A DNA stretch of 36,915 nt from Bacteroidota bacterium (lineage in GTDB: Bacteria; Bacteroidota; Bacteroidia; Bacteroidales; VadinHA17), in assembly GCA_021816545.1 (NCBI GenBank), contig JAKAXP010000001.1:1-36915 (forward strand), read 5' to 3'. Shown one piece after another: positions 11,560 through 36,664 of this stretch. Position numbers and translations under genes: made by a program. How positions within the stretch are numbered: position 1 is the first letter of the stretch; each line of letters starts with the position of its first letter. The notes under the pieces were generated by a model. It searched no databases, was not told the origin of the DNA, and worked only from the letters and a program-made list of their open reading frames with translations.

Positions 11560-13986
11560 ATGAAGATTACCAAAGTACTGCCGCTCCTGATCGGCGCACT
11601 CGTGTCCGGCTGCAGCTCCGGGCCGGGCTCAACCGGTAAATATGTTATGTGGTATGACAGGCCTGCCGCCCAATGGACAGAAGCCCTGCCAGTAGGAAAC
11701 GGGCGCCTTGGCGGGATGATCTTCGGTAATCCGGCGGTTGAACGCCTGCAGGTAAATGAGGAGTCGTTATGGGGCGGTGTGAATATTCCAAACAACAATC
11801 CCGGAGCGCTTGCAAACCTGCCGGAGATAAGGAAACTTATTCTCGACGGGAAGATCCCTGAGGCATATGAGCTTTCGGAAAAATACCTGGCCGGAATACC
11901 GGGAAAAACATGGACGTACCAGACTGTGGGGGACATCTTCTTCAGATTTGCTGATACCACTGAGGTGACCGATTACCGACGCGGGCTGGACCTGGCCACC
12001 GGTATTGCCTCGGTCAGTTTTGAAAGGAACGGGAACAGGGTTTCATATGAAGTTTATGTGCCTGCCGGCGAAGACCTTATGGTAATCACAATGAAGTCAG
12101 AGGATGAGGGCGGCCTTAATATGGATATTTCTCTGGCAAGGCCTCAGGATGCTTTGATAACAGTCACCGACAACAGGATTGACATGGAAGGACAGATAAT
12201 CGATCCCGAGGATCCAGAAAGAGGTCCCAGCGGAGATCATATGAAGTTCTTTGCCTCGCTGATTGTAATGAGCTGTGACGGTGAACTGAAGAAAGGTGAA
12301 AACAGCCTTAATTACACTGGTGGTAAGGAAATGACGCTATTTTTCAACGCACACACTGACTATAATGTTGACCTGCTGAATTTTGACAGGACGATTGACC
12401 CGCGGGAAAAATGTACCGATGCAATAAGCAAAGCATCCTGGAAGTCATTCGCAAAGATCAGGAAAGAGCATATAGCTGAGCACTCGTCGATGTTCAACAG
12501 GGTCAGTCTTACCCTGGGCAGCGGACCTCATGCGGGCAGGTCCGGGACCACTGCGGAAACCTCAGTTGAAAAGCAATCGTCTGAAGATTACAGAGACCTT
12601 GACGGGCTGCCAACTGATGAGCGGCTCAGGAGGTTCCAGGCAGGCGGTGATGACCCGGAGCTTATTGCGACTTATTTCCAGTATGGGCGATACCTCCTGA
12701 TGGGATCATCGCGCCGGCCGGCGCAACTGCCTGCAAACCTGCAGGGTATCTGGAACAAGGACCTTGCCGCACCGTGGAACTCAGATTATCACACAAACAT
12801 AAATCTCCAGATGAACTACTGGCCGGCAGAGGTCTGCAACCTTACAGAGACCGTTGAGCCGCTGACACGGTTCATGGAGGAGATGACCGGCCCTGGAAGT
12901 GTGACAGCGCGCGAAACATACGGTGCGAAGGGGTGGACTATGCATCACACTACGGATGTCTTCGGCAAGACTGCGGTGATAGACGGAGTTTACTGGGGCA
13001 TGTTCCCCCTCGGTGGTGCCTGGATGACTCTGCCACTATGGGAACACTATGAGTTTACAAATGATACAGCATATCTGCGTGACCGGGCTTACCCCGTAAT
13101 GAAGGGAGCTGCAGAGTTTATCACGACATTCCTGGTACCGGACAGCCAGGGCCGTCTTGTGACAGTCCCCTCCTACTCTCCGGAAAACAGCTACATTGAC
13201 CCCGTATCCGGCAAGGAATTCAAGCTGACATATGCGCCTTCGATGGATAACCAGATCATCCGCGAGGTTCTCGGCAACTGCCGCAAGGCTGCATCAATAC
13301 TTGGTATTGACAGGGAGTGGGCAGATTCGCTTCAGCTGATCCTTGAAAGGGTTCCTGCTGACAGGGTGGCCTCCAACGGCACTATCATGGAATGGATTGA
13401 GGAATTCAGTGAGGCCGAACCCGGTCACAGGCACATGTCGCATCTTTTCGCCCTTCATCCCGGGACTCAGATAACACCCCGGACACCGGACCTGTACGCT
13501 GCGGCGCGCCGGACACTTGAGAGGCGTCTGGAGAACGGCGGCGGACATACAGGCTGGAGCAGGGCATGGATAATCAACTTCTATGCAAGGCTTTATGACG
13601 GCGAAGAAGCTTACAAACATCTGAGGCTGCTCCTTGAAAAGTCAACGCTCCCGAATCTCTTTGACAATCACCCTCCGTTCCAGATAGACGGCAACTTTGG
13701 CGGTACAGCCGGCCTGGCCGAGATGCTTCTTCAGAGCCAGAACGGAACAGTTTTGATACTCCCCGCCCTGCCGGCAGCATGGCCGGAGGGAGAGGTAACG
13801 GGACTGAAGGCGAGGGGCAATTTCGAGGTCGGCATCAAGTGGCGCAACGGTGTAGCAGAGAAGATCAATGTGAAGTCGCTCTCAGGCGCACCGCTGAATC
13901 TTTCGTACCGCGGAAATATCAATTCTATGGAGACGTCAAAAGGAATTGTATACAAATTTGACAGCAACCTGAAATGGATAAAGTAA
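11560..13986 (+). CDS. Glycoside hydrolase family 95 (alpha-L-fucosidase type), lipoprotein
   Basis: Lipobox ALVSGCSS. N-terminal WYDRPA..WTEALPVGNGRLGGMIFG..ERLQVNEESLW, then ANLQGIWN and WNSDYHTNINLQMNYWPAE, are GH95 hallmarks. 808 aa. Confidence 0.85.
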   Translation: MKITKVLPLLIGALVSGCSSGPGSTGKYVMWYDRPAAQWTEALPVGNGRLGGMIFGNPAVERLQVNEESLWGGVNIPNNNPGALANLPEIRKLILDGKIPEAYELSEKYLAGIPGKTWTYQTVGDIFFRFADTTEVTDYRRGLDLATGIASVSFERNGNRVSYEVYVPAGEDLMVITMKSEDEGGLNMDISLARPQDALITVTDNRIDMEGQIIDPEDPERGPSGDHMKFFASLIVMSCDGELKKGENSLNYTGGKEMTLFFNAHTDYNVDLLNFDRTIDPREKCTDAISKASWKSFAKIRKEHIAEHSSMFNRVSLTLGSGPHAGRSGTTAETSVEKQSSEDYRDLDGLPTDERLRRFQAGGDDPELIATYFQYGRYLLMGSSRRPAQLPANLQGIWNKDLAAPWNSDYHTNINLQMNYWPAEVCNLTETVEPLTRFMEEMTGPGSVTARETYGAKGWTMHHTTDVFGKTAVIDGVYWGMFPLGGAWMTLPLWEHYEFTNDTAYLRDRAYPVMKGAAEFITTFLVPDSQGRLVTVPSYSPENSYIDPVSGKEFKLTYAPSMDNQIIREVLGNCRKAASILGIDREWADSLQLILERVPADRVASNGTIMEWIEEFSEAEPGHRHMSHLFALHPGTQITPRTPDLYAAARRTLERRLENGGGHTGWSRAWIINFYARLYDGEEAYKHLRLLLEKSTLPNLFDNHPPFQIDGNFGGTAGLAEMLLQSQNGTVLILPALPAAWPEGEVTGLKARGNFEVGIKWRNGVAEKINVKSLSGAPLNLSYRGNINSMETSKGIVYKFDSNLKWIK

Positions 13987-14522
13987 TCTTTTTCATTGCA
14001 CTTAGCATTCCGGTGATTTTCTTCTCAAAGCAAAGCCTGTTTGAGCCGCGCAGCCACGGATTCACGAGGTTCTTTAGCTGGGAGTGCATAATTATCCTGT
14101 TTGTATTCAATTATACCAAATGGTTCAGCGAGCCATTTTCTGCCAGGCAGATTATTTCCTGGCTCATGCTATGTGTTTCACTGTGGTTTGTAATAGAATC
14201 GGTTGTAAGGTTAAGAAGGGCCAGGAAGCCGGGTGTTGTGCGGGTGGATGAGAAGCTGTTCAGGTTCGAGAAGACAACGGAACTGGTCACTTCAGGGATT
14301 TACAGGTACATCAGGCATCCAATGTATTCTTCCCTCCTGTTTCTTTCCTGGGGCATATGGCTCAAACAGCCCCTTTGGTACACTTTTCCCGTAGCGCTGC
14401 TTGCATCATGGCTGCTCTGGCTGACCGCCCGCCGCGATGAAATTGAGTGTATCTCCTATTTCGGGGAGAAATACAGTGAGTATATGGAAGGGACGAAAAG
14501 GCTCATCCCGTTCATACTGTGA
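13974..14522 (+). CDS. Membrane methyltransferase, ICMT/PEMT-like family
   Basis: Polytopic 182-aa protein with GIYRYIRHPMYSSLLFLSWG, the family's SAM-binding loop signature. Overlaps the GH95 stop by 13 nt. Confidence 0.7.
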   Translation: MDKVIFFIALSIPVIFFSKQSLFEPRSHGFTRFFSWECIIILFVFNYTKWFSEPFSARQIISWLMLCVSLWFVIESVVRLRRARKPGVVRVDEKLFRFEKTTELVTSGIYRYIRHPMYSSLLFLSWGIWLKQPLWYTFPVALLASWLLWLTARRDEIECISYFGEKYSEYMEGTKRLIPFIL

Positions 14523-14600: not shown

Positions 14601-16199
14601 TTATCTCCAGGAATCAATTTTGTCCAGCGGATAGATCGGCCTGGGAATATTGACATAGTTCAGCGCAAACGGATCGATGCTGCTGAATCCGGGTGACATC
14701 ACATTGACAGTCTTCCTGTTATATAGCAGGTAGTTATATCTGAACGGGAACAGGTTTTTAACCGCAACAATATCCGCTTTCCAGACTGAGAGCCCGAGAT
14801 TTTTGAAATCAGACGGTTCTTTCAGTGCCATCGGAAGTTCTGAGAGAATAAGATGTACTCCGTCATGTTTCAGGATGACCGTTTTGCCATACGATGTCTC
14901 CTGTTTTGAGGCAACAACACCGGTAAATACAAACGGTTTATCGTAGACAGTATCAAGCTTGCCTCCGACAGAGATTGTTATTTCATCCCCGGTGTTGTAC
15001 TGCCATGCCTCACCGGCTGCAACTGCGTCGCGCACCGAGACATATGACACAAGGTTGCTCCCCTTTTCAACAAGGGCTTTCAGAATCCATGTGCTTTCGC
15101 CCGGAGTTCCGGCTGAAGGAGCATCGGCCACATCGCAGAAAACCACTGTTCCAAGCGCGCGGGCAATTTTTTTGTCACGGGCTATAGCCACTGCTTCCTC
15201 GGGACTGTTTCCGGCCGGCTGGGGCACATCACGGACAGCCCAGGCCATGTCGGCTATGCTGTCAGCCAGTTCCTGCGCCAGGTCTTTCTTCCCGTCTGTT
15301 ATGGCGACCGTGCTGTATCCCAGTTCAGGCTCATCGATCCATATGTGTACCGGGAAGAAGGAGACAGAGAGTACATCCGGCTGCTTCTCCATCTTCTTCA
15401 TTGAAGAGAAAATCTTTCTGAAGGGAGGAAGGAAGTCGACGTTCATACCGCCACCCTTGAGCAGTTTCATCTTGTTTACAACCATTACCGGCTTTATTTC
15501 GCCAAGGACGGTACGTACGAGCAGGTCGCCGGCCCTGAGGGCAGTTTTGAAATGGTCACGGTGAGGATTTGTATGGTAGCCCACAATGATATTTGCATTT
15601 TCCGTCCTGCGTTTGGTAACGTTGGCATGGAGGTCAAAGGAAACTGCTATCGGCACATCAGGGCCAACAACTTCCCGAAGTGCAAGGATAAGGTTACCCT
15701 CCGGATCGAACATTCCCTGAACGCCCATGGCACCATGCAGTGAGAGGTATATTCCGTCAACCTGAGGCTGGCTCCGGACAGCATCCAGCATCGTGTTTTT
15801 GATCTTCGCATAGAAGAGGCTGTCGACCGGTCCGCCTGACATTGATTTGGCCTGCACCATTGGGACAGTTCTGATCCTTCCCTTTCCGGTTTTTTCAACT
15901 GCGGTGAGAAAGCCTGCCAGCTGTTTGTCTTCTTCAATGGCTGATGCAGGAACATCCTCACCGTAGAAGAGATGGTCAGCCTTGAAATTAACTTCACCGG
16001 TAATGACCGGTGAGAAACTGTTGACCTCATGCATGAATTCCCCATAGAGGATAACCTTCTGATTTGAAGGATTGTCAGTGTTTTGTTGTCCTGTGTTGAC
16101 AGAAGTACCCTGCCTTGAACATGATATAATCGCAAGAATCGTCAGCAAAAAGAACGCCTTGGTCAAAATCAACCTGATGGATTGATACTTTTGGGTCAT
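14601..16199 (-). CDS. M81 family metallopeptidase (MlrC-like), lipoprotein
   Basis: Lipobox LAIISCSR. N-terminal GEFMHEVNSFSP (HETNTF-like). VDGIYLSLHGAM...FDLHANVT...VGYHTNPHRD block is typical of MlrC N-domains. Confidence 0.8.
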   Translation of the reverse strand: MTQKYQSIRLILTKAFFLLTILAIISCSRQGTSVNTGQQNTDNPSNQKVILYGEFMHEVNSFSPVITGEVNFKADHLFYGEDVPASAIEEDKQLAGFLTAVEKTGKGRIRTVPMVQAKSMSGGPVDSLFYAKIKNTMLDAVRSQPQVDGIYLSLHGAMGVQGMFDPEGNLILALREVVGPDVPIAVSFDLHANVTKRRTENANIIVGYHTNPHRDHFKTALRAGDLLVRTVLGEIKPVMVVNKMKLLKGGGMNVDFLPPFRKIFSSMKKMEKQPDVLSVSFFPVHIWIDEPELGYSTVAITDGKKDLAQELADSIADMAWAVRDVPQPAGNSPEEAVAIARDKKIARALGTVVFCDVADAPSAGTPGESTWILKALVEKGSNLVSYVSVRDAVAAGEAWQYNTGDEITISVGGKLDTVYDKPFVFTGVVASKQETSYGKTVILKHDGVHLILSELPMALKEPSDFKNLGLSVWKADIVAVKNLFPFRYNYLLYNRKTVNVMSPGFSSIDPFALNYVNIPRPIYPLDKIDSWR

Positions 16200-22777: not shown

Positions 22778-22810
22778 GAAGACTGCCGGATTGGGGCGCC
22801 GGCAGTCTTC
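22778..22810 (+). terminator. Perfect 12-bp stem / 9-nt loop hairpin downstream of the S9 peptidase gene
   Basis: GAAGACTGCCGG-attggggcg-CCGGCAGTCTTC, 43 nt after the stop at 22735. There is no U-tract, so the intrinsic-terminator role is inferred from position only. Confidence 0.5.
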
Positions 22811-23091: not shown

Positions 23092-23445
23092 ATGACCAGA
23101 ACAAAACTTACCCTAAGTCTTCTTCTGTGCCTGGTGATCATTGCGGCCTCCTGCGGAGGCGGCAAAGGCAAAGGGGCACAGGAAACACCTGAAACTCCTG
23201 CCGCAACGGCAACCGTAAGCCTGGCCATCGAGGGGATGACCTGCACCGGCTGCGAGAACACAATCTGTACCAGCCTGGAAAAAGTACCTGGTGTAAAGTC
23301 CGTCACCGCCTCCTTTTCTGACGGCAAGGCAGTCATTGAGTATGAACCCGGCAAGGTTGATACCGCAAAGCTCAAGGAGGCTGTGGATGCTTCAGGATAC
23401 AAGGCACTGAAAGTCAGTGCTGTAGAAGGCGAAGAAAAACAGTAG
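23092..23445 (+). CDS. Exported heavy-metal-associated (HMA) domain lipoprotein, MxCxxC
   Basis: MTRTKLTLSLLLCLVIIAASCGGG lipoprotein signal from the ATG at 23092. GMTCTGCENTI metal-binding loop in a roughly 70-aa ferredoxin-like HMA domain. Confidence 0.75.
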   Translation: MTRTKLTLSLLLCLVIIAASCGGGKGKGAQETPETPAATATVSLAIEGMTCTGCENTICTSLEKVPGVKSVTASFSDGKAVIEYEPGKVDTAKLKEAVDASGYKALKVSAVEGEEKQ

Positions 23446-23489: not shown

Positions 23490-24467
23490 ATGTCCAGAGA
23501 CAAGAAGGAAGAGGGTAATCGCAGCGATGACCTTGACAGGACAATTGAAAACTCCAGGCGTGATTTTCTGAGGAAGGTCACACTGGCAGGAGCGGTTACT
23601 GTCACGGGAGCAGCAGCGATATACTCGGGTCACCGATTTGAGAAAGCCAAGCACCGGGAGGGCTACGTGAAGGTGCTCACCGAAGACAACCGGCTGGTTG
23701 AGATCCCGGTTGAACAGATGCGTGACTTCAAGCCTGACCTGAAGATGCTTCAGAGCCAGGGAAGGGAAGGAATTGCCGGCAGAAGATGGGTCATGGTTAT
23801 AGACCTTTCAAAGTGCCGCAATGCCAGGAAATGCGTTGAGGCATGCCAGGCTGCGCATCATCTACGGCCTTATGAATATCATATAAATACCCTTGTGATG
23901 CAGGAGTCTGTCAATACCCCTGCATACTTTATGCCCAAGCCCTGCCAGCACTGTGACAATCCTCCGTGTGTCTCGGTATGCCCGGTGGATGCCACCTTCA
24001 AGAGGCAGGACGGGATAGTACTGATAGACAATGAGAGGTGCATCGGCTGCCGGTTCTGCATGGCTGCCTGTCCTTACTCGGCAAGGATGTTCCACTGGCA
24101 GGAGCCATCGCAGAGCGAGACAGACAAAGGCAGCGAGTATAATGTTGAACTGAACGTCCCCCAGAAAAAGGGTACCATCAGCAAATGCCTGTTCAGTGCC
24201 GACAGGCTGAGGGAGGGGATGCTTCCATACTGCGTCTCGGCCTGTCCCAACGGTGTGTTTTACTTCGGAGACGAGAACGAAGATGCCGTCACCAACGGAA
24301 CCACGAAGCAGACCGTCCGTTTCAGCGAGCTGATTGAGAAGAACGGAGGTTACAGGCTGATGCCGGAACTCGGAACCCAGCCAAGGGTATACTATCTCCC
24401 GCCCAAGAACAGGATCTTCGATTTTGAGCAGGGGGAAAAGAGAGAGTACAAGGAAGAAAAATCATAA
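23490..24467 (+). CDS. Tat-exported four-cluster-type Fe-S protein (NrfC/DmsB/ActB2-like electron-transfer subunit)
   Basis: Twin-arginine motif SRRDFLRK. Cys groups are C109-x5-C-x3-C, CQHCDNPPCVSVCP, CIGCRFCMAACP and C233-LF-S...C248-VSA-CP. Confidence 0.8.
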   Translation: MSRDKKEEGNRSDDLDRTIENSRRDFLRKVTLAGAVTVTGAAAIYSGHRFEKAKHREGYVKVLTEDNRLVEIPVEQMRDFKPDLKMLQSQGREGIAGRRWVMVIDLSKCRNARKCVEACQAAHHLRPYEYHINTLVMQESVNTPAYFMPKPCQHCDNPPCVSVCPVDATFKRQDGIVLIDNERCIGCRFCMAACPYSARMFHWQEPSQSETDKGSEYNVELNVPQKKGTISKCLFSADRLREGMLPYCVSACPNGVFYFGDENEDAVTNGTTKQTVRFSELIEKNGGYRLMPELGTQPRVYYLPPKNRIFDFEQGEKREYKEEKS

Positions 24468-24479
24468 ACAGGCGCCATT

Positions 24480-25823
24480 ATGGATGAATTTCGCTTCAAT
24501 ACTCCCCGTGAGAAGGGGAAGATCGATTCCCTGGCCGCTGACATCCTTAAAAACGTCAGGATCAATGCCTCGTTCCTCCTGTGGATGGGATTTCTATTCA
24601 CACTTCTGGCCGCCTGTCTGTTCGCCTACACAATACAGCTCAGGAAGGGACTGGGCGTAACCGGGCTTCGTGATTTTACAAGCTGGGGCATGTATATTGC
24701 CAACTTCGTATTCTTCGTGGCTACCAGCCTCTGCGGGATGCTGATCAGCTCGGTACTCGGGCTTATCGGGTACAGGTGGGTCAAACCCATTTCGCGAATA
24801 GCGGAGATAATTGCAATAGCATTTGCAGCCGTGGCCGGACTTGTCATCATCTCTGACATGGGTCGCCCTGACAGGCTTCCCTATGTCTTCATGTTCGGAA
24901 GAGTGCAGTCGCCAATACTGTGGGACGTGACTGTTGTTACAACCTACTTCGTGCTGAGCATGCTGCTGTGGTTCTTCCCGATGGTTCCGGACCTGGCAAT
25001 TGCAAAGGACAGGCTTGAAGGGAGGCCAAAGTTCCTTGTGAAGGCATATGAGATACTTTCTGTCAGGTGGATGCATCATGAAAAGCAGTACCATTTACTG
25101 GGCCAGGCAGTAAGGATACTTCTGATACTTATTATTCCCACTGCCTTTGCAATACACACCGTCACCTCATGGCTTTTCGCGGTGACGCCGCGTACAGGCT
25201 GGGACAGCACGATCTTCGGGCCCTACTTCATCTCCGGAGCCTTTGTATCAGGCACCGCAGCGGTGATTATTGCCATGTACTTCTTCAGGGTGAACTACAG
25301 GCTTGAGAAGTACCTTAATACCGAGACCTTTGAGAAGATGGGAAGGGTGATGGTACTTGTGGCTATAGTTTATTTCTATTTTAACCTCAATGAGTTTCTT
25401 GTTCCGGGCTACAAACTTAAGACCGGTGATGCCATTCATCTGCGTGAGCTCTTCACAGGCCACTACGCTGCCCTTTTCTGGGGCATCCAGCTGTTCGGGC
25501 TTATTATTCCGGCCATACTGCTGTTATTCAAGCAGATTCGCCGGCCGCTCCCCATGATGGTCATCTCACTCTTCGTGCTGGTTGGCTCCTGGTTCAAGAG
25601 ATTCATAATCGTTGTTCCTCCGCAGGGGCATCCCAACCTCCCGATACAGAATGTGCCGGTTGAGTGGGTGGTTTACAAACCGACTCTCATCGAGACGGCA
25701 GTGACAGTGGCTTCAATAGTCCTGGTGCTGATAATAATTACAATACTCTCCAAACTGTTCCCGGTTATCCCCATCTGGGAGATGGCGGAGGAAGAGAACG
25801 GAAAAGATAAAATTTCGGAATAA
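24480..25823 (+). CDS. NrfD/ActC-like polytopic quinone-interacting membrane subunit
   Basis: 447-aa protein with roughly 10 hydrophobic helices, 12 nt after the Fe-S subunit gene. That is the canonical NrfC-NrfD gene order. The family call is by architecture and context, not by a specific motif. Confidence 0.7.
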   Translation: MDEFRFNTPREKGKIDSLAADILKNVRINASFLLWMGFLFTLLAACLFAYTIQLRKGLGVTGLRDFTSWGMYIANFVFFVATSLCGMLISSVLGLIGYRWVKPISRIAEIIAIAFAAVAGLVIISDMGRPDRLPYVFMFGRVQSPILWDVTVVTTYFVLSMLLWFFPMVPDLAIAKDRLEGRPKFLVKAYEILSVRWMHHEKQYHLLGQAVRILLILIIPTAFAIHTVTSWLFAVTPRTGWDSTIFGPYFISGAFVSGTAAVIIAMYFFRVNYRLEKYLNTETFEKMGRVMVLVAIVYFYFNLNEFLVPGYKLKTGDAIHLRELFTGHYAALFWGIQLFGLIIPAILLLFKQIRRPLPMMVISLFVLVGSWFKRFIIVVPPQGHPNLPIQNVPVEWVVYKPTLIETAVTVASIVLVLIIITILSKLFPVIPIWEMAEEENGKDKISE

Positions 25824-25841
25824 CAGTAAATCCAGAGTATT

Positions 25842-26786
25842 ATGAGATTTTTCACGGTTTTGATATTGAGCCTTTTGCTGGTTCCATCGATGGCCCAGGA
25901 CCCTGATTGGGTTGTTCCGGAGGACAGGAAGGGCAGGCTAAGCACCTTCCCCTTCACCGATGAGACCAGGAAAGAAGGTGAGCGGCTGTACCAGGTTAAC
26001 TGTCACTCATGCCACGGTGACCCCGGGAGGAACAACTACATAGCTCTGCAGCCCCCTCCCGGAGACCCGGCCACGGAAAAGATACAGAATAACAGTGATG
26101 GTGAAATATTCCACAAGGTAACCACGGGTCGCGGTCCGATGCCATCATTCCGCAGTGTGCTTACCACCGAGGAAATCTGGAAGGTTGTATCATATATAAG
26201 AAGTTTCAACCGCAACTATGTCCAGAAAGTGATGCAGGTTATTACGTCCTCAGCGTACCCGGGTGCGGTGATCAGTATGAAGCTTGCCTGGGATGATGCG
26301 GCAAAGCTGGTATCAGTGATTGCCACGGCAACCGGCGAAACCGGCAGCGTGCCTGTGACAGGTGCCGGGGTAAGACTGATGGCGGGAAGATATTTCGGCA
26401 TGATGCAGGTTGATGAGGAGAAGGTCACCGACAACAGCGGAACAGCCCTCTTTGCCACACCTGAAGGATTGCCCGGAGACACGGCGGGAAACATCCGCTT
26501 TAGTGCCCAGTTCACTGATGAGCAGACCTTCGGAAGCGTTTCAAAGGACACAGTTCTGAGGGCCGGTGTGGTAACCGTTCCTGTTAGCCTCACGGCAAAG
26601 AGAGCCATGTGGAACACAGTCAGGAAAGCCCCCGTGTGGGTCATACTTGCATACGGTCTCGGCGTGCTTGCAGTGTGGGGATTCATACTCCTTGTAATGC
26701 TGAAACTGAGAGACATCTTCACTGTGGGCACAGCTCTTCAGGAGCGGCTCCAGGCATCAGGCAATGAAACAACAACAAACAACTGA
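25842..26786 (+). CDS. Monohaem class I cytochrome c with a C-terminal extension domain and TM anchor
   Basis: Signal peptide. Single CHSCH haem site (26001-26015) and GRGPMPSF distal Met region. About 120-aa beta-rich extension, then the TM helix VWVILAYGLGVLAVWGFILLVML. Confidence 0.75.
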   Translation: MRFFTVLILSLLLVPSMAQDPDWVVPEDRKGRLSTFPFTDETRKEGERLYQVNCHSCHGDPGRNNYIALQPPPGDPATEKIQNNSDGEIFHKVTTGRGPMPSFRSVLTTEEIWKVVSYIRSFNRNYVQKVMQVITSSAYPGAVISMKLAWDDAAKLVSVIATATGETGSVPVTGAGVRLMAGRYFGMMQVDEEKVTDNSGTALFATPEGLPGDTAGNIRFSAQFTDEQTFGSVSKDTVLRAGVVTVPVSLTAKRAMWNTVRKAPVWVILAYGLGVLAVWGFILLVMLKLRDIFTVGTALQERLQASGNETTTNN

Positions 26787-26791
26787 CCAAT

Positions 26792-27181
26792 ATGAAACAA
26801 CTTGCCCCGTTAGGCCGCATCCTCTTCGCACTGCCCTTTGCAGTGTTCGGTATCAACCATCTGGTAATGAAGGATTTTTACCTGGGTATGCTGACATCAT
26901 TCATCCCCCTGGGGGCGTATACGATCATCCTGACAGGACTGATAATGATAGCCGTCAGCATCAGCATCATCACCAAAAAGTTCATCAGGCTCTCCACCCT
27001 GGTACTTGCAGGGCTGCTGCTTATTTTCATACTGACAATCCATATCCCGCACCTTCTTGCTGACGGTACGGACAAGACACCCATCCTGATAGCATTGCTG
27101 AAGGACATCTCGCTTATGGGCGGATCGCTGATGATCGCAGGTTACTGCGCTGAAGAAGAATTAAAAAAAGCTGAAAAATGA
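26792..27181 (+). CDS. DoxX family membrane protein
   Basis: 129-aa, 4-helix protein. The N-terminal LGRILFALPFAVFGINHL resembles the DoxX signature region. Confidence 0.55.
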   Translation: MKQLAPLGRILFALPFAVFGINHLVMKDFYLGMLTSFIPLGAYTIILTGLIMIAVSISIITKKFIRLSTLVLAGLLLIFILTIHIPHLLADGTDKTPILIALLKDISLMGGSLMIAGYCAEEELKKAEK

Positions 27182-27960
27182 AGATACTGAGAGTTGCAGC
27201 CGTCGTGACGGGCATCTTTATCCTTTCGCCTTCAGGCGCACAGGAGATAAAGACTGCAGGCTATAAACAGCCCGAACCGGAAATAGGTGTTGTAGAGCAC
27301 CTTGGCGACACCATTCCGCTTGACCTGTGGTTTTACAATGAAAACAGTGAGCAGGTTACCCTCAGGTCTCTTATTGACAGGCCGACGATAATGAGTTTCG
27401 TCTACTTTGACTGCCCCAACCTCTGCAGCCCGCTGATGGATGGCATTGCAGATGTGGTCAGCAAGATGGACATGACACTGGGGACCGACTTCAGGATCAT
27501 CACTATCAGTTTCAACACGAGTGATACGCCGGAGAAGGCCAGGGAGAAAAAACAGAATTTTGTACAGAGGATCAGCAAGGAGAACCAGAAAGACTGGATT
27601 TACCTGACTGGAACCCAGGAGAATATAAGTGCCATAACGGCGGCGGCAGGATATAAATACACGCCCCAGGGGCTTGACTTTGCGCATCCGTCGGTGATTA
27701 TGGTGGTAAGCCCTGCAGGGAAGATCACCCGGTACCTGTACGGACTCACCTATCTTCCCTTTGACGTCAAGATGGCAATAATTGAGGCCCAGAAGGGTAT
27801 TGCGAGGCCCACCTCGAACAAGATACTTGAATACTGTTTTGCATATAACCCGGCAAGCAAGACTTATACTCTCCAGGTTACAAGGATTGTAGGCATCATA
27901 ACAATCTTCTTCCTGGTTCTGATTATGATCGTACTGCTTGCCAGGAGAAGGAAAAAATAA
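27178..27960 (+). CDS. SCO1/SenC family copper chaperone (thioredoxin fold), with C-terminal TM anchor
   Basis: FVYFDCPNLCSPL CxxxC motif and downstream His (FAHPSVIM). ATGA start/stop overlap with DoxX. C-terminal IVGIITIFFLVLIMIVLLARRRKK. Confidence 0.8.
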   Translation: MKILRVAAVVTGIFILSPSGAQEIKTAGYKQPEPEIGVVEHLGDTIPLDLWFYNENSEQVTLRSLIDRPTIMSFVYFDCPNLCSPLMDGIADVVSKMDMTLGTDFRIITISFNTSDTPEKAREKKQNFVQRISKENQKDWIYLTGTQENISAITAAAGYKYTPQGLDFAHPSVIMVVSPAGKITRYLYGLTYLPFDVKMAIIEAQKGIARPTSNKILEYCFAYNPASKTYTLQVTRIVGIITIFFLVLIMIVLLARRRKK

Positions 27961-27964
27961 GAGG

Positions 27965-29590
27965 ATGACTATGGGAAACGACACACAGCCAAGTTACCTG
28001 GAATACCAGGGCAAGCACAAGGGGTTGGCAGGATGGCTGCTAAGCACCGATCACAAGCGGATAGGGCTCCTCTATCTCTATGCCATTATAGTATTTTTCT
28101 TCGTTGCGGCGTTCCTGGGTCTTCTCATGCGCATCGAGCTGATAGCGCCGGGAAAGACCATCATGGAACCCCAGACCTATAACGGGTTGTTCACAATTCA
28201 TGGGATCATCATGATCTTCGTGATAGTGATACCTGGTATGGCGGCAGTCTTCGGGAACTTCTTCCTGCCGATCATGATCGGTGCAAGGGATGTGGCTTTC
28301 CCGAAGCTGAATCTCTTCTCATGGTACCTGTATATCACGGGGGCTCTGCTCGGAGTGCTTTCACAGTTCATAGGCAACGGGCCGCCTGATACCGGGTGGA
28401 CTTTCTACGTGCCTTACAGCGTGGAGTCTGACACAAGCGTTATCTGGGCCCTTACGGCAGCTTTCATACTCGGATTTTCATCCATTCTGACCGGGCTTAA
28501 CTTCATAGTTACTATTCACAGGCTGAGGGCCCCGGGGATGAAATGGATGAGAATGCCACTTTTCCCATGGGCAATATATGCAACTGCTTGGACGCAGGTA
28601 CTGGCAACGCCAATTATCGGGATAACCCTGCTTATGGTGATTGCAGAGAGGGTCCTCAACATCGGCTTTTTTGACCCGGCGCTGGGTGGTGACCCGCTGC
28701 TGTACCAGCATCTGTTCTGGATTTACTCTCATCCGGCCGTTTACATTATGATACTGCCTGCTATGGGAGTTGTAACCGAGATTTTCCCCACATTCAGCCA
28801 GAAGCCGGTATTCGGTTATACTGCTATTATGATCTCCAGCCTTGCAATTGCACTTGTCGGCTATTTTGTCTGGGGGCATCATATGTTCACGGCCGGGATG
28901 AGCTATTACGCACGGTGGTTCTTTTCATTCCTCACCTTCATTGTGGCAATACCAAGCGCCATCAAGGTATTCAACTGGATATCCACCATGTACGGCGGAT
29001 CAATTGACCTCAAGCCGCCATTGCTGTACGCAATTGCATTCATTTTCCTGTTCATGATCGGTGGGTTCACCGGTCTGGTGCTGGGTTCACTTGCAACAAA
29101 CGTGCAGACACATGACACAGCGTTTGTGGTGGCTCATTTCCATTATATAATCTTCGGGGGGATGGGATTTGCGTTCTTTGCAGGGATTCACTACTGGTAC
29201 CCGAAGATGTTTGGAAAGATGTACAATAACCGGGTGGCAAACATTGCCTGGGGATTCAATTTCATCGGGTTCAACTTGCTTTACTTCCCCCATTTCATCC
29301 TGGGAATACAGGGAATGCCAAGACGGTCATATGATTACCTGCCGCAGTTCCATACGGGGCACTTCATTTCGACGATAGGGGCATTCATACTTATTGCCGG
29401 TATGTTGTTAATGCTGTTCAATTTCATCAGGGCAGGCAGGCGGGGCATCAAGGCTCCGGCCAACCCATGGCACGGTGTGACCCTTGAGTGGAAGATACCC
29501 TCTCCCCCGCCCCATGAAAACTTTGAGGAGATTCCTGAAATAACCTCCAAACCGTATTTCTTCGGAAGCAGCGATAAAACCAAACAGTAG
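27965..29590 (+). CDS. ctaD: Cytochrome c oxidase subunit I, A2-type haem-copper oxidase
   Basis: Canonical HCO blocks (GNFFLPIMIGARDVAFPKLN, HFHYIIFGG, GMPRR). Helix VI reads WIYSHPAVY. Start taken at the Met 4 nt after the SCO stop. The track's 27938 start would overlap SCO by 23 nt. Confidence 0.9.
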   Translation: MTMGNDTQPSYLEYQGKHKGLAGWLLSTDHKRIGLLYLYAIIVFFFVAAFLGLLMRIELIAPGKTIMEPQTYNGLFTIHGIIMIFVIVIPGMAAVFGNFFLPIMIGARDVAFPKLNLFSWYLYITGALLGVLSQFIGNGPPDTGWTFYVPYSVESDTSVIWALTAAFILGFSSILTGLNFIVTIHRLRAPGMKWMRMPLFPWAIYATAWTQVLATPIIGITLLMVIAERVLNIGFFDPALGGDPLLYQHLFWIYSHPAVYIMILPAMGVVTEIFPTFSQKPVFGYTAIMISSLAIALVGYFVWGHHMFTAGMSYYARWFFSFLTFIVAIPSAIKVFNWISTMYGGSIDLKPPLLYAIAFIFLFMIGGFTGLVLGSLATNVQTHDTAFVVAHFHYIIFGGMGFAFFAGIHYWYPKMFGKMYNNRVANIAWGFNFIGFNLLYFPHFILGIQGMPRRSYDYLPQFHTGHFISTIGAFILIAGMLLMLFNFIRAGRRGIKAPANPWHGVTLEWKIPSPPPHENFEEIPEITSKPYFFGSSDKTKQ

Positions 29591-29597
29591 CCGTTCC

Positions 29598-30212
29598 ATG
29601 ACAGAAAATCACACTCACACAGAACATATTGACAGCGAGACTGGTAAGCTGGGGATGTGGATATTCCTCTTCACCGAGCTGTTCCTGTTCGGGGGGCTAT
29701 TCCTGGTCTATGCTATCTTCAGGGCAAAGTATTCGGCTGATTTCCATCACGGTGCGGCGGAACTGAATGCCTTCATCGGGGCAATAAACACAGTCTTCCT
29801 GCTGATAAGCAGTATGACTGTTGCCGGGGCACTGACGGCAATGCAGAAGGGCGACAGACGGATGACCATGCTTCTGCTTACAGTGACACTCATGCTGGCT
29901 GCGCTGTTCCTCCTAAACAAGTATTTCGAGTGGTCTCACAAATTTGAATATCACATCTGGCCGGGTTCACCTGTACTTAAGAATATGCCTCAGGGAGAGT
30001 TGCTCTTCTTCGGTCTTTACTACATGATGACAGGTCTGCATGCATTGCACGTGATTGTAGGTATGGTGCTGCTGTCAATCAATCTGGTGAAAGTAAAGGC
30101 GGGTACGGTTAACGCCGGGAGGTACGTGATACTGGAGAACAGCGCCCTTTACTGGCATCTTGTTGACCTGATCTGGATATTCCTTTTCCCGCTTCTGTAC
30201 CTTATAACATAA
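29598..30212 (+). CDS. ctaE: Cytochrome c oxidase subunit III
   Basis: FFGLYYMMTGLHALHVIVG and YWHLVDLIWIFLFPLLYL are subunit III hallmarks. Confidence 0.85.
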   Translation: MTENHTHTEHIDSETGKLGMWIFLFTELFLFGGLFLVYAIFRAKYSADFHHGAAELNAFIGAINTVFLLISSMTVAGALTAMQKGDRRMTMLLLTVTLMLAALFLLNKYFEWSHKFEYHIWPGSPVLKNMPQGELLFFGLYYMMTGLHALHVIVGMVLLSINLVKVKAGTVNAGRYVILENSALYWHLVDLIWIFLFPLLYLIT

Positions 30213-30219
30213 CCGACTG

Positions 30220-30504
30220 ATGAAAGACGAAAAGCAACATATATCATCATATGCGTCACTTACAGTGGTGCTTGTGATACTTCTTACCCTGACAACAATT
30301 TCAGTGCTTGTCACGGGGATTCATCTGGGTCCGGTTACGGTTGCAGTTGCACTGGTCATTGCCAGTGTCAAGGTAGCAATAGTCATAACCCAGTTCATGC
30401 ATCTCAGGTTCGAAAACCTGTTCCTGAAGCTGGCAGTCTCGGGGGTGTTCACACTCTTCGCGCTTGTCATCCTGATAACATTCATAGATTACTTTTTCAG
30501 ATAA
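30220..30504 (+). CDS. Cytochrome c oxidase subunit IV (prokaryotic small subunit family)
   Basis: 94-aa, 3-helix protein with AIVITQFMHLRFEN (CyoD/CtaF-like FMHL motif), placed right after subunit III. Confidence 0.6.
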   Translation: MKDEKQHISSYASLTVVLVILLTLTTISVLVTGIHLGPVTVAVALVIASVKVAIVITQFMHLRFENLFLKLAVSGVFTLFALVILITFIDYFFR

Positions 30505-30516
30505 ACATTTGAAATT

Positions 30517-31464
30517 ATGTTCACAGGTGCATCAAATCTTGCAGAGGGAGTAGACAAGGCGTTCCTGTTCATCTTCATAATCGCCTTCATCTTTATAATC
30601 GGTATCACTGTATTTATGATCTGGACAGTGATACATTTTTCAAGGAAGAAGGGAAAGGAGGCGAAGCAGTTCAGAGGCAGCATGAAGCTGGAGGTGCTGT
30701 GGACTGGCATACCGCTTATCCTTGTAATGCTGATGTTCTGGATCGGATGGAAGGGTTTTGCCCCGATGCGCAAGGTTCCTGCCGATGCGATGGTTGTAAA
30801 GGCCATTGGGAGGATGTGGGAATGGGAGTTCGTGTACAGCGACAGCCTCCGTTCGAAAGAACTGGTGTTGCCTATCAATAAACCGGTTAAGCTTGACCTG
30901 GTTGCGGAGGATGTGAATCACAGCCTCTTCATTCCGGCGTTCAGGGTAAAGGAGGATGTCGTACCCGGGTATGACAACTGGTTATGGTTCACGCCAAACT
31001 ACATAGGCAACTACGAGATACTGTGCACTGAATACTGCGGATTGCTCCACTCAGCCATGGTGTCACAGACGCGAATCGTGGAGCAGGATGAGTATGACAA
31101 ATGGTTCGAGGAGCTTAAGGCTGCATCGTTTGTGCCGGAGCCCGATGGGCTGAAGCTGCTCAGGAGCACAGGCTGCCTGGCATGTCATTCGCTTGACGGA
31201 TCGAAGCTGGTAGGTCCTTCGTTTGCGGGCTTCTACGGGTCGCAGCGGACGGTGACTGCCGGCGGGGCACAGAAAACGGTGACTGCTGATGATGCCTACA
31301 TTAAAAGGTCAATCTATGAACCCAACGAGGAGGTTGTCGAGGGTTACGCGAGGAACCTGATGCAGTCTTACCGGACTCTGCTCACAGAGGAGCAGATAGG
31401 GATCATAACCGAATATCTGAAGACGCTGGTGAAGAATGAAGGAACGCAGGGGGCCGGTCTCTGA
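30517..31464 (+). CDS. ctaC: Cytochrome c oxidase subunit II with fused C-terminal cytochrome c domain (caa3 type)
   Basis: Two N-terminal TM helices. CuA site H135...C170-TEY-C-GLL-H-SA-M (31024-31059). C-terminal CLACH haem c site (31174-31188). Confidence 0.9.
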   Translation: MFTGASNLAEGVDKAFLFIFIIAFIFIIGITVFMIWTVIHFSRKKGKEAKQFRGSMKLEVLWTGIPLILVMLMFWIGWKGFAPMRKVPADAMVVKAIGRMWEWEFVYSDSLRSKELVLPINKPVKLDLVAEDVNHSLFIPAFRVKEDVVPGYDNWLWFTPNYIGNYEILCTEYCGLLHSAMVSQTRIVEQDEYDKWFEELKAASFVPEPDGLKLLRSTGCLACHSLDGSKLVGPSFAGFYGSQRTVTAGGAQKTVTADDAYIKRSIYEPNEEVVEGYARNLMQSYRTLLTEEQIGIITEYLKTLVKNEGTQGAGL

Positions 31465-32344
31465 CATTGCGGAGCTCTCCCGGTGGAAGCTTTCGCTGGC
31501 GGTTGCTTTCTCAGCAGTGACGGGGTACCTGCTGTATGCCGGCAGTGGCAGGGGGAGTGCCTTGCTTCCTGGCTATCATCTTTACGATTCTGCCGTGACG
31601 GTTGGCGTTTTGCTGGCGGGTGCGGGCGTATTCCTTCTCTCTGCCGGTGCATCGGCGCTGAACCAGTACACGGAGAGGAGGAGTGACGCGGTTATGGAGC
31701 GCACTGCCGGCAGGCCGTTGCCTTCGGGGCGTATGGCGCCGCCGGCCGCCATGGTGACGGCGGTGATCATGCTGGCCGCAGGGATTGTTGTTCTGGCCCG
31801 CGGCGGCACGTGGCCGGTGTTGCTAGGTGCCTTCAATGTCATCCTCTACAACCTCATCTACACCGGCCTCAAGAAGAAGACCACACTTGCAATCATACCC
31901 GGTGCCCTCGTAGGGGCCGTGCCGCCGCTGATAGGCTATACCGCGGCCGGCGGCGCCATGACCGACACCCGCCTCCTGCTGTTCGCACTGTTCATGTTCC
32001 TCTGGCAGATGCCCCACTTCTGGCTCCTGCTTGTAAGGTACGGCGAGGAATATGAAAAGGCAGGCATCAAAACGCTTCGTCAGCGGATGGATGACAGATC
32101 AATAAGGCGCCTGATAATGGCCTGGATCACCGGATCATCCCTCCTTCTCTGGATACTGACCGCCATATTAATGCCCTTCAGCAGCATAGCAGCACTGACC
32201 CTGCTACTCCTGAATGCAGTCTTCATAATCGCTTTTTCAGTAATCACCAGGGCGGACTTTGCCGGCACACGGTCAAAGTATGCTTTTGTAGCCTTCAACT
32301 CCTTTACGGCCCTGGTAATGATAATACTGATTGCATTTGCCTGA
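31436..32344 (+). CDS. cyoE: Protohaem IX farnesyltransferase (haem o synthase)
   Basis: UbiA-superfamily polytopic protein with SAGASALNQYTERRSD (NxxxD-type prenyl-diphosphate motif). Overlaps the ctaC end by 29 nt. Confidence 0.85.
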   Translation: MKERRGPVSDIAELSRWKLSLAVAFSAVTGYLLYAGSGRGSALLPGYHLYDSAVTVGVLLAGAGVFLLSAGASALNQYTERRSDAVMERTAGRPLPSGRMAPPAAMVTAVIMLAAGIVVLARGGTWPVLLGAFNVILYNLIYTGLKKKTTLAIIPGALVGAVPPLIGYTAAGGAMTDTRLLLFALFMFLWQMPHFWLLLVRYGEEYEKAGIKTLRQRMDDRSIRRLIMAWITGSSLLLWILTAILMPFSSIAALTLLLLNAVFIIAFSVITRADFAGTRSKYAFVAFNSFTALVMIILIAFA

Positions 32345-32625
32345 CCCCAGGACTGTCATCAGTTGGATACTTAGTGCATTCCTTTGCACCTCGGGCCGGC
32401 AATTATCAGATAATAATTACATTCCCATGCCCCCGGGGCAGGAAGCTGTCCTATACAGATTGCATTTGCCTGACCCCAGGACTGTCATCAGTTGGATACT
32501 TAGTGCATTCCTTTGCACCTCGGGCCGGCAATTATCAGATAATAATTACATTCCCATGCCACGGGGCAGGAAGCTGTCCTATACAGATTGCATTCCCCTG
32601 CCCCCGGGCTGGAAGCCTTAAGAAA
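32332..32625. repeat. Tandem array with 43-bp periodicity (7 units) organised as two near-identical 129/128-bp higher-order units plus a degenerate partial unit
   Basis: 32332-32460 and 32461-32588 differ only at catgcccccgggg versus catgccacgggg. Subunits beginning TGCATT/TACATT start at 32332, 32375, 32418, 32461, 32504, 32547 and about 32589. The first unit includes the last 13 nt of cyoE. Confidence 0.9.
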
Positions 32626-34955: not shown

Positions 34956-35101
34956 AGGTTAAGAAGGCCTCTGGTTATATGTGCAATAAAAGCCGGCAAT
35001 GTTACAGACCCGGTTTTTGATACACCCAGACCGGATGTACAACAGGATGCCTTTTTCGGGCAATTGTGCTAACTTTATTCTCTCAACAAACTGATTTTTC
35101 C

Positions 35102-36664
35102 ATGAAGAAGATCCTATTGATTTCGTTAGTGCTGTTCAGCTGCCTGGCAGCCCGGACGCAGCCACTTAAGTCAGATGAAATAGACAGGCTGGTCAACCGT
35201 ACCCTTGAGACCTTCAATGTACCAGGCATTGCCGTAGCCGTGATAAAGGATGACCAGGTGGTGCACATGAAGGGGTACGGGGTCAGTTCAATTGCCACCG
35301 GCAAAAAGACTGATGAAAACACCCTTTTTGCAATCGCATCAAACTCGAAGGCTTTCACCTCGGCAGCACTGGGAATCCTTGTTGACGAAGGTAAACTCAC
35401 CTGGGAGACAAAGGTCACTGACATCATACCTGAGTTCAGGCTGTACAATTCATATGTGACAGAGGATTTCAACATAAAGGACCTCCTCTCCCATCGCAGC
35501 GGGATGGGACTGGGTGCAGGCGACCTGATGCTGTGGCCTGACTCATCAGCCTTTACAAAGGAAGAGATAATCCACAACCTGAGGTACCTGAAGCAGACCT
35601 CGCCCTTTCGGACGAAATACGATTATGACAACCTTCTTTATCTTGTTGCCGGGGAGGTTGTGGCCAGGGTCTCAGGGCAGAGTTGGGAGGACTTCGTGGA
35701 GTCAAGGATAATGAAACCGCTGGGAATGGAAAACTCGGCTGCATCATTCAGCAGGGTCAGGAACAGGTCAAACATTATCGATCCCCACATCCCGGTCAAC
35801 GGAGTGCTTCAGGTGGTGCCGATGTACCAGAGCAGCCTGTTCAACTCGGGAGCAGGAATCATCAGCAGTGTTTCAGATATGAGCAAATGGGTGATGATGC
35901 AGATCAACCGTGGCAGGTACGGTGAAAACAACGGCATGCAATTGCTGAAAGAGGCTACACAGCGTGACATGTGGACCCCGCAGACAATAATCCCGGTGCG
36001 CAATCCAGGTCCCTACAGGACTCACTTCTCTGCATACGGCCTGGGCTGGGGTCTGACGGATGTGGCAGGGTACCTGCAGGCATCTCATACCGGCGGACTG
36101 GGAGGCGTTGTTACCCAGGTTACAATAATCCCCGAACTGAAACTCGGGATCATAGTATTCACGAACCAGCAGGAAGGGTCTGCCTTTACCGCAATCACAA
36201 ACACAATCAAGGACGGTTACCTCGGGATCAAGGGGAATGACTGGCTTAAAACCCTGAAGGAAAATGTTGACAGGAACCAGGCCGAGGCGAAGAAGATAAC
36301 CGATGAAGTATGGTCAAAGGTTGAGGCACAGCGATCAAAGAGCGTATCTCCGGTTGATTATGCACAATACACAGGCACCTATACCGACAGCTGGTTCGGC
36401 GACATAATTATTGCTGAAGTGAACGGGAAGCTGCGGTTCCGGTCCGTAAAGTCTCCACAGCTCAGAGGTGATATGCTGTTTTACACCGCCAACACCTTCG
36501 TCGTAAAGTGGGACGACAGGTCGATGGATGCCGATTCATGGGCGGTCTTTTCACTCGATAAGGATGGTAAGGCGCAGTCATTTACGATGGATGCCATCTC
36601 TCCCCTCACCGATTTCAGTTATGATTTTCATGATCTCAGCCCGAAGCGTAAGGAAGTCAGATGA
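35102..36664 (+). CDS. Serine hydrolase, beta-lactamase fold, with extra C-terminal domain; exported
   Basis: ATG at 35102 gives the signal peptide MKKILLISLVLFSCLAARTQ. S-x-x-K (ASNSKAF), YDN and HTGGLGG motifs. About 130-aa C-terminal lipocalin-like extension (DUF3471-like). Confidence 0.8.
   Translation: MKKILLISLVLFSCLAARTQPLKSDEIDRLVNRTLETFNVPGIAVAVIKDDQVVHMKGYGVSSIATGKKTDENTLFAIASNSKAFTSAALGILVDEGKLTWETKVTDIIPEFRLYNSYVTEDFNIKDLLSHRSGMGLGAGDLMLWPDSSAFTKEEIIHNLRYLKQTSPFRTKYDYDNLLYLVAGEVVARVSGQSWEDFVESRIMKPLGMENSAASFSRVRNRSNIIDPHIPVNGVLQVVPMYQSSLFNSGAGIISSVSDMSKWVMMQINRGRYGENNGMQLLKEATQRDMWTPQTIIPVRNPGPYRTHFSAYGLGWGLTDVAGYLQASHTGGLGGVVTQVTIIPELKLGIIVFTNQQEGSAFTAITNTIKDGYLGIKGNDWLKTLKENVDRNQAEAKKITDEVWSKVEAQRSKSVSPVDYAQYTGTYTDSWFGDIIIAEVNGKLRFRSVKSPQLRGDMLFYTANTFVVKWDDRSMDADSWAVFSLDKDGKAQSFTMDAISPLTDFSYDFHDLSPKRKEVR

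Follow-up and report, generated by a model that had tools for sequence, protein, structure and literature searches.

A compact iron-sulfur, NrfD-type and cytochrome c gene trio beside oxidase genes in Bacteroidota: a candidate quinol:cytochrome c oxidoreductase

Alternative complex III (ACIII) donates electrons directly to caa3 oxidase (PMC5928083), and the way in which quinol oxidation is coupled to charge translocation is still debated for ACIII as for Qrc and Psr (PMC5928083, PMC6303296, PMC8076601). Related NrfC/NrfD-type systems have also been described: SirCD is an NrfCD-type quinol dehydrogenase coupling to several carriers (PMC8524038), Cbc4 of Geobacter sulfurreducens was proposed to be a quinone:cytochrome c oxidoreductase (10.1101/2025.04.14.648717), and the Melioribacter genome paper raised the possibility that an orphan NrfCD pair acts as a quinol:cytochrome c reductase, which sets a precedent for the idea and no more (PMC3534657). 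Cytochrome c oxidases are encoded by many members of the Bacteroidales and Marinilabiliales that are considered anaerobic or microaerobic (e.g. PMC5760507), and the menaquinol-to-cytochrome c route in these organisms has rarely been addressed. The present analysis concerns a trio of genes heading a caa3 oxidase cluster on contig JAKAXP010000001.1 of a Bacteroidota bacterium of the order Bacteroidales, within a stretch of 36,915 nt that is hereafter called the window.

The three genes are all encoded on the forward strand and are separated by gaps of 12 and 18 nt, with the borders and lengths given in an earlier note on this DNA:

23490..24467, + strand: four-cluster-type Fe-S subunit (NrfC/PsrB/DsrO-like), 325 aa; Fer4_11 E 9e-24
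24480..25823, + strand: NrfD-family membrane subunit with 10 transmembrane helices (TMH), 447 aa; Pfam NrfD E 6e-34, ten hydrophobic segments
25842..26786, + strand: monohaem cytochrome c subunit with an immunoglobulin-like (Ig) domain and a transmembrane (TM) helix, 314 aa; Pfam Cytochrome_CBB3 E 2e-14

The profile searches proposed in the earlier note thus matched both the NrfD and the four-cluster Fe-S families. A polytopic NrfD protein and a ferredoxin with four clusters exported by the twin-arginine (Tat) pathway lie side by side, as in NrfC/NrfD-type dimeric modules related to the complex iron-sulfur molybdoenzymes (CISM). Judged from sequence, it is reasonably probable that the trio forms a compact membrane complex oxidising menaquinol and reducing cytochrome c, that is, a functional analogue of complex III for the downstream caa3 oxidase; this task usually falls to the bc1 complex or to ACIII. 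The idea of a pared-down quinol:cytochrome c oxidoreductase, first put forward in the earlier note, is supported by the absent catalytic partner, by the position of the family in a separate clade and by its recurrent linkage to cytochrome-c-dependent reductases. The term 'ACIII-like' used there remains suitable as regards the presumed activity and the membrane-subunit fold, but not for membership of ACIII.

As expected from that note, no molybdopterin, multihaem, Rieske or cytochrome b open reading frame (ORF) was detected in the 36.9-kb window by Pfam, by the precomputed families of contig L002 or by motif scans. Pfam was run on the ORFs directly, those at 13974-14522 and 14601-16199 being covered through the L002 families, and the haem-motif and Rieske-motif scan took in all 140 window ORFs. 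Among ORFs passing as genes, only those of the third subunit and of CtaC contained CxxCH, each of them once; a single motif was also present in each of three short spurious ORFs.

A scan of one genome per GTDB species yielded at least 593 matching stretches, and the locus counts reported here refer to the best 80 loci, all from Bacteroidota, on which the eleven window proteins were mapped by BLASTP and whose neighbouring ORFs were clustered. Isolates among them belonged to Marinifilum, Saccharicrinis, Ancylomarina, Draconibacterium, Maribellus, Pinibacter, Chryseolinea and Flavobacterium. The Fe-S and NrfD genes were adjacent in 80/80 loci, and a third-subunit homologue stood beside them in every locus of sufficient length. 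No recurrent large catalytic subunit was found among the neighbouring ORFs of the 80 loci or of three distant relatives. Orthologues consistently placed next to such a subunit, which the earlier note had named as a refuting observation, were thus not encountered, the genes recurring nearby being those for the third subunit, for cytochromes c and for oxidases. NapA was the sole molybdoenzyme in the 80 loci; it was present in two of them, together with its own napGHBD. A remnant of a Psr- or ACIII-type operon was also considered, and was ruled out by the family-wide conservation and by the signatures proper to the family.

The survey for the trio beside cta genes, also proposed earlier, returned about 19 loci besides the window in which a co-directional block SCO1-ctaDE-IV-ctaC-cyoE was present, with NrfD identities ranging from 59 to 85% and gaps usually below 50 nt. 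In five Prolixibacteraceae loci, the trio was flanked by a divergent caa3 operon on one side and by a fused ccoNO(P) gene on the other, and in four loci, including that of Marinifilum flexuosum, it lay directly upstream of ccoI-ccoNO-ccoP-ccoG. Two further loci, L021 (Ancylomarina sp. DW003) and L027 (Draconibacterium aestuarii), at 12.2-17.6 kb, carried it directly upstream of napA-napG-napH-napB-napD, at a distance of 42 nt in L027; no napC was found at these two nap loci. Oxidases of the caa3 and cbb3 types as well as NapAB all take electrons from c-type haem proteins, and linkage of the trio thus recurred with three unrelated cytochrome-c-dependent enzymes, in different gene orders. In Campylobacter, Nap is known to be fed by a complex III (PMC6195509). 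All terminal-reductase-linked loci fell into a single monophyletic subclade (n=37) of the NrfD tree described below. This subclade was also distinguished by the cytochrome-Ig-TM fusion and by Ser instead of the second Cys in Fe-S group IV.

Among PDB chains, the membrane subunit matched at E <= 0.01 only the four ActC chains of ACIII, over the full length and with E values from 1e-45 to 2e-41; PsrC, NrfD-type and ActF chains were unmatched at this threshold. Residues 52-451 of R. marinus ActC were rebuilt from the PDB alignment, and the resulting numbering fitted all 30 residues named in PMC5928083. The pocket residues W82, I86, F89 and D169 of ActC were kept family-wide (window W69, I73, F76 and D149), as were most half-channel residues, namely R119, E122, D191, Y176, S180, H247, E450, R395, Y270 and E326. 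On the other hand, ActC H139, D253, P136, H97 and E394 correspond to D, L, I, L and K, respectively, throughout the family, D126 standing for His139 and Leu232 for Asp253 in the window protein.

A neighbour-joining (NJ) tree without bootstrap was built from 187 NrfD-type sequences, among which 6btm_C and 6f0k_C were the only named references, DsrP, QrcD, HybB, PsrC and ActF references not being included. It separated an ActC clade (n=29, signature H-D-E), which contained both references, from a Bacteroidota clade (n=88, signature D-L-K), with several unnamed groups lying between them. Within the limits of two named references, this phylogeny of the 447-aa protein, advised by the earlier note, placed it outside the ActC clade. 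True DsrP was sought among the intermediate groups, and ten sampled representatives were all far below the DsrP cut-off. Likewise, the trio scored below the curated cut-offs for DsrO/DsrP, NrfC, QrcC/D and HybB, which leaves it outside these characterised complexes. Public labels of these genes include 'polysulfide reductase NrfD', 'molybdopterin oxidoreductase membrane subunit' and 'HybB-like'.

The Fe-S subunit carries a twin-arginine motif (SRRDFLRK, as read from the sequence) and, within 325 aa, only Fer4-type domains. It aligned to PsrB (2vpw_B) and to the B2 domain of ActB, over ActB residues ~740-960 only, and its best NCBIfam model was DsrO, with 186 bits against a cut-off of 200. Motif conservation was counted over 78 family members. 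Cys groups II and III were complete, group III reading CIGCRFCMAACP with four Cys invariant in 78/78. Group I, C-x5-C-x3-C, had its second Cys replaced in 76/78 members, and group IV read C-x2-S in 36/78, which are the members of the oxidase-linked clade, so that the window protein has 14 cluster Cys rather than 16. In the NarH/PsrB-type ligand scheme, groups I and IV presumably build the two clusters farthest from the membrane, and the two distal three-Cys sites are probably [3Fe-4S] clusters of higher potential.

For the third protein, the earlier description as a cytochrome c with a signal peptide and a C-terminal TM helix was correct, but the Ig-like domain preceding this helix had been overlooked. 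The layout comprises a Sec signal peptide, a class-I cytochrome c, an Ig-like beta-sandwich (~143-239), a juxtamembrane helix and a TM segment at 263-299. The single haem site is C54HSCH58, and Met100-Pro101 was invariant in 42 homologues; the CxxCH motif and the invariant Met100 point to a class-I His/Met haem. Cytochromes of this class are the usual electron donor type for oxidases. In the PDB, the cytochrome domain matched c552 (E 3e-12) and, more weakly, ActE (6btm_E 1.7e-6, 6f0k_E 5e-6). An AlphaFold2 (AF2) model reached predicted local distance difference test (pLDDT) values of 80-90 across the beta-sandwich and the membrane helix, the cytochrome domain being of low confidence. A Foldseek comparison of this model with the PDB returned generic Ig-like, macroglobulin and GH2 beta-sandwiches together with spurious Kir-channel matches, and no subunit of a respiratory complex.

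The C-terminal half of the third subunit was homologous (E 2e-10) to the C-terminal extension of an NrfD fusion protein, P0124, and the modules occur in several natural arrangements. In the window clade, Ig-TM is joined to cytochrome c; in P0124, P0127, P0131 and P0146 it extends the C-terminus of NrfD, these latter fusions measuring 624-698 aa and occurring in relatives 35-45% identical. Loci L003, L084 and L085 have the order Fe-S, NrfD-Ig-TM fusion and separate small cytochrome c, and at 1825-4122 of L086 NrfD and Fe-S form one 765-aa polypeptide (P0137, in the same identity range), after which a free-standing Big-domain protein and cytochromes c are encoded. Among aerobic Bacteroidota (clade 2), the third gene encodes a haem-less protein with one or two Ig domains and a TM helix, alongside a separate ~135-aa cytochrome c which is 33-34% identical to the haem domain of the window protein. 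Since the four modules stay together and fuse in different pairs, these comparisons provide strong evidence that NrfD, Fe-S, Ig-TM and class-I cytochrome c form one physical complex. The composition of some fusion-bearing relatives was unlike that of Bacteroidota. One close third-subunit homologue alone was present on 374 public contigs.

The following path for the electrons can be proposed. The NrfD-type subunit would oxidise menaquinol in its periplasmic pocket, and the quinol electrons would enter the proximal [4Fe-4S] cluster of the Fe-S subunit before running along the four-cluster wire, where two distal [3Fe-4S] clusters would lift the potentials towards that of cytochrome c. They would then arrive at the His/Met haem c of the third subunit. 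The Ig-like domain and the TM helix presumably tether this cytochrome to the membrane subunit, in a docking geometry that may raise the haem domain towards the distal cluster. The haem could subsequently reduce the cytochrome c domain of CtaC, the presumed acceptor; in other lineages, CcoO/CcoP of cbb3 or NapB would take this role. The quinol protons would go to the periplasm, and additional proton translocation is possible via the partly conserved ActC-type half-channels.

Regarding the position of the trio, the earlier statement that it heads a co-directional caa3 oxidase cluster was borne out, with spacings of -29 to +12 nt among the genes downstream of it. Eleven genes are tightly packed, from an HMA lipoprotein gene through haem O synthase. 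Besides the trio, they are:

23092..23445, + strand: HMA-domain (CopZ-like) lipoprotein; Pfam HMA E 1.4e-15, GMTCTGC motif, AASC lipobox
26792..27181, + strand: 129-aa 4-TM protein, weakly DoxX/MauE-like; sub-threshold profile matches
27178..27960, + strand: SCO1/SenC copper chaperone for CuA assembly; Pfam SCO1-SenC E 4e-10
27965..29590, + strand: CtaD, oxidase subunit I; Pfam COX1 E 3e-149, TIGR02891 664.9 against a cut-off of 670.75 (just below)
29598..30212, + strand: CtaE, oxidase subunit III; Pfam COX3 E 9e-20
30220..30504, + strand: caa3-type oxidase subunit IV; TIGR02229 49.6 bits against a cut-off of 37.25, Pfam COX4_pro
30517..31464, + strand: CtaC, subunit II with a C-terminal cytochrome c (CLACH); TIGR02866 160.7 against 147.7 bits, COX2, COX2_TM and Cytochrom_C
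31436..32344, + strand: haem O synthase CyoE/CtaB, UbiA family, last gene; Pfam UbiA E 6e-44

With oxidase subunits I to IV, a cytochrome c fused to subunit II, SCO1 and haem O synthase, the cluster is an A-type (caa3) haem-copper oxidase operon. The HMA gene lies 44 nt upstream of the trio, and a homologue likewise precedes the trio in L001, L004, L005, L007, L009, L010, L013 and L044; the protein is probably a periplasmic copper chaperone and its gene the first of the unit. The ORF was listed from 23002, and comparison with homologues and with the public gene call on the 100%-identical contig L002 gave 117 aa, for which 23092 is the likely true start. Similarly, CtaD probably starts at ATG 27965 (541 aa, as in homologues) and not at the listed TTG 27938. 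For the 129-aa protein, gene and position were as described earlier, but its identity as DoxX was seen only at sub-threshold level (E 0.014-1.8 in five homologues). No Pfam or NCBIfam match was obtained for it at E <= 0.01, while the DoxX/MauE matches in 5 homologues were sub-threshold but profile-long. It was present in 12 loci, about half of the caa3-linked ones; the position of SCO1 was kept in 25 loci and that of haem O synthase in 24. At 5872-8524 of L003, a copA-type Cu-ATPase and a small HMA protein precede the module, and no oxidase genes are present there.

The upstream border of the oxidase transcription unit is probably a perfect 12-bp-arm hairpin at ~22778-22810 (GAAGACTGCCGG, 9-nt loop, CCGGCAGTCTTC), which directly follows an S9 peptidase gene, has no T-tract and is separated from the HMA gene by 356 nt. 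On the other side, a convergent gene and a tandem repeat with units of 129 bp delimit the unit; this repeat (32324-32605, 2.2 copies, 96% match) lies right after the cyoE stop and yields two overlapping repeated ORFs. Between 22500 and 33000, 17 sigma-70 promoter-like sites were counted against 11.2 +/- 3.6 in shuffled sequences, with a consensus ill-suited to Bacteroidota, and terminator-like sites numbered 7 against 8.5 +/- 2.8; the TAnnTTTG motif was absent upstream of the operon. As these scans were near shuffled expectation, we infer co-transcription of the trio with the oxidase genes, and the operon structure itself, from spacing alone. Elsewhere the window encodes GH95 and GH97 enzymes, peptidases and members of the beta-lactamase family, and this content, like the database names of near-identical proteins, points to a Bacteroidales-type genome. 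The beta-lactamase-family (serine hydrolase) ORFs are three in number, within 80-2507 and 35066-36664, two of them adjacent, and are unrelated to the trio.

Several observations weigh against a quinol:cytochrome c oxidoreductase serving oxidases. The quinol-coordinating His139 and Asp253 of ActC correspond to Asp and Leu in this family, so that the quinol site stays putative. The membrane-proximal cluster of the Fe-S subunit has four Cys, as opposed to the +140 mV [3Fe-4S] cluster of ACIII, and [4Fe-4S] clusters of low potential could hinder electron transfer, uphill or downhill. The Nap loci already carry napGH. The recurrent copper-handling neighbours (HMA, SCO1, ccoI/copA) could equally suggest a role in oxidase biogenesis. 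Finally, the aerobic clade of Chitinophagales, Cytophagales and Flavobacteriales is not found beside oxidases. Its neighbours are an EB_dh protein, a 128-aa cytochrome-like protein, a DUF5777 outer-membrane beta-barrel and a small cytochrome c, located from about -4 to +2 kb of NrfD in L039, L041, L045, L046, L059, L065, L069-L075, L081 and L082. This cluster is sometimes accompanied by YceI-like or multihaem (six-CxxCH) ORFs and often occurs in two or three tandem copies (three in L046). Its gene content suggests an electron path reaching the outer membrane, and the partner of the family is therefore not always an oxidase.

These points bear on three other explanations. The trio might be an oxidase-biogenesis module, in which quinol electrons keep the Sco/CuA cysteines reduced or make Cu(I) for caa3/cbb3. 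Its surroundings fit such a role, with the HMA lipoprotein, the DoxX-like protein and SCO1 flanking it in the window, the Cu-ATPase gene ccoI directly downstream of it in L015, L034 and L026, and copA and HMA upstream of it in the oxidase-less L003. Nevertheless, a 10-TMH ActC-like subunit whose half-channels are conserved, a four-cluster wire and a dedicated His/Met cytochrome c would be heavy machinery for maintenance, and ccoI and SCO1 are normal in oxidase clusters, so that their nearness follows from that of the oxidase. The same subclade is moreover found 42 nt upstream of napAGHBD, a molybdoenzyme system without a copper centre, and we regard a biogenesis role as quite unlikely. Alternatively, the electrons could flow in the reverse direction, as in a Qrc-like cytochrome c:menaquinone oxidoreductase, or the trio could be a generalist quinol dehydrogenase resembling CymA or SirCD and lacking a specific coupling to caa3. 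Qrc, with a related 10-TMH subunit, does act as a quinone reductase (PMC6303296), the aerobic Bacteroidota clade stands beside EB_dh, an outer-membrane barrel and extra cytochromes and not beside oxidases, and the neighbouring enzymes differ (caa3, cbb3, Nap). Within the window subclade, however, every identified neighbour is a sink fed by cytochrome c, linkage to a periplasmic dehydrogenase or hydrogenase was not seen, and the operon-like caa3 packing is kept from 59 to 85% identity; this possibility appears unlikely.

It could also be supposed that the trio is the electron-transfer module of a larger enzyme, whose molybdopterin or multihaem catalytic subunit is encoded elsewhere, the position beside the oxidase being incidental. 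NrfC/NrfD modules usually serve a catalytic partner, ~20 kb per genome were inspected, and two loci adjoin napA. Against this, the 80 loci and three distant relatives had no recurrent catalytic subunit and always a c-type cytochrome, the Cys of group I, which face the catalytic subunit in Psr-type enzymes, have lost one ligand in 76/78 members, and the Ig-TM subunit is a family-specific addition. A detached partner is thus very improbable, and a compact complex passing electrons from menaquinol to cytochrome c remains the favoured explanation. A bolder proposition would be that, besides bc1/b6f and ACIII, the family represents a third and structurally distinct class of respiratory enzymes with quinol:cytochrome c oxidoreductase activity. 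It would be built from just four modules, namely an ActC-like subunit conducting protons, a 14-Cys Fe-S wire, an Ig-TM strut and a class-I cytochrome c, would conserve energy through proton translocation, and would form the sole link from menaquinone to caa3/cbb3 (and Nap) in microaerobic Bacteroidales and Marinilabiliales; such a generalisation is conceivable but doubtful.

No description of the trio was found in the literature, subscription journals being outside the coverage of the search, so that an earlier description is possible; a review of the NrfD family omits it (PMC8076601). Comparison of sequences and gene orders indicates a distinct, widespread and apparently undescribed family. 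Its third subunit, its Fe-S signature and the residues at its putative quinol site are its own, and its genes are linked to those of O2 reductases. If the proposed function is true, three polypeptides would do the work of the six- or seven-subunit ACIII, which would provide a minimal system for charge coupling of the NrfD/ActC type, and the annotation of the respiratory chain would change for many environmental and gut-related Bacteroidota.

Comparison with known complexes places the family at some distance from each of them. NrfBCD, SirCD and MccCD are likewise NrfC/NrfD-type pairs without a molybdoenzyme, which lead electrons from quinol to periplasmic c-type cytochromes. Their NrfD, however, belongs to the 8-9-TMH branch (PMC6303296) and serves multihaem nitrite or sulfite reductases. 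As for NrfABCD, the NrfC model TIGR03149 gave 112.7 bits against a cut-off of 377.6, and no multihaem NrfA- or NrfB-like ORF was present in the window. DsrOP and QrcCD are closer, since they belong to the same 10-TMH branch as ActC (PMC6303296) and provided the top curated models (DsrO 186, DsrP 124 and QrcC 122 bits). All these scores were nevertheless below the equivalog cut-offs (200, 350 and 400 bits, respectively), the DsrP match covered only the N-terminal ~140 residues, and unlike DsrMKJOP and QrcABCD the window trio is devoid of dsrMKJ, qrcAB and sulfur-metabolism neighbours. PSRLC3 of green sulfur bacteria was considered as a relative and rejected, being a sulfite-oxidising system.

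A composition of cytochrome c, Fe-S and NrfD-type subunits is in itself not unprecedented, as Cbc4 (CbcSTU) of G. sulfurreducens also combines an anchored c-type cytochrome, a four-cluster Fe-S protein and a cofactor-less membrane subunit (10.1101/2025.04.14.648717). CbcS, however, is a tetrahaem NapC/NirT-type cytochrome with an N-terminal anchor, whereas the trio cytochrome is monohaem and of class I. Compared by description only, CbcT has four [4Fe-4S] clusters, Ig-TM is missing from Cbc4, and its context is extracellular electron transfer.

The likeness to ACIII (ActABCDEF; 6F0K, 6BTM, 6LOD, 8K9E) goes further. Both have a 10-TMH quinol subunit of the NrfD fold with shared pocket and half-channel residues, a four-cluster Fe-S module sent to the periplasm by the Tat pathway, and a class-I cytochrome c with one haem, the putative electron exit in the case of the trio; in both, caa3 genes adjoin, and quinol:cytochrome c oxidoreduction would be the common reaction, as presumed for the trio. 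The differences lie mainly in composition. The window trio has no pentahaem ActA, and no multihaem ORF stands beside the trio in the oxidase-linked loci mapped. ActB measures ~930-1040 aa and includes a molybdopterin-like B1 domain, in contrast to the 325-aa Fe-S protein devoid of B1. The three-Cys site of ActB is in group III (CxxTxxC, beside the quinol; PMC5928083), while those of the trio are in groups I and IV. His139, Asp253 and Glu394 of ActC are Asp, Leu and Lys in the trio, only Asp169 being kept among these four. There is no ActF: the window holds one NrfD-family ORF, and extra NrfD genes elsewhere always belong to complete tandem trios. No 2-TMH ORF is conserved beside the trio, ActD having no Pfam model and not having been searched by sequence. 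The trio cytochrome is anchored by a C-terminal TM helix via the Ig domain, as opposed to the N-terminal lipid of ActE. The best reading of these comparisons is that the family shares with ACIII the fold and probably the chemistry, departs from it in subunit composition, and is an analogue of ACIII rather than a member of it.

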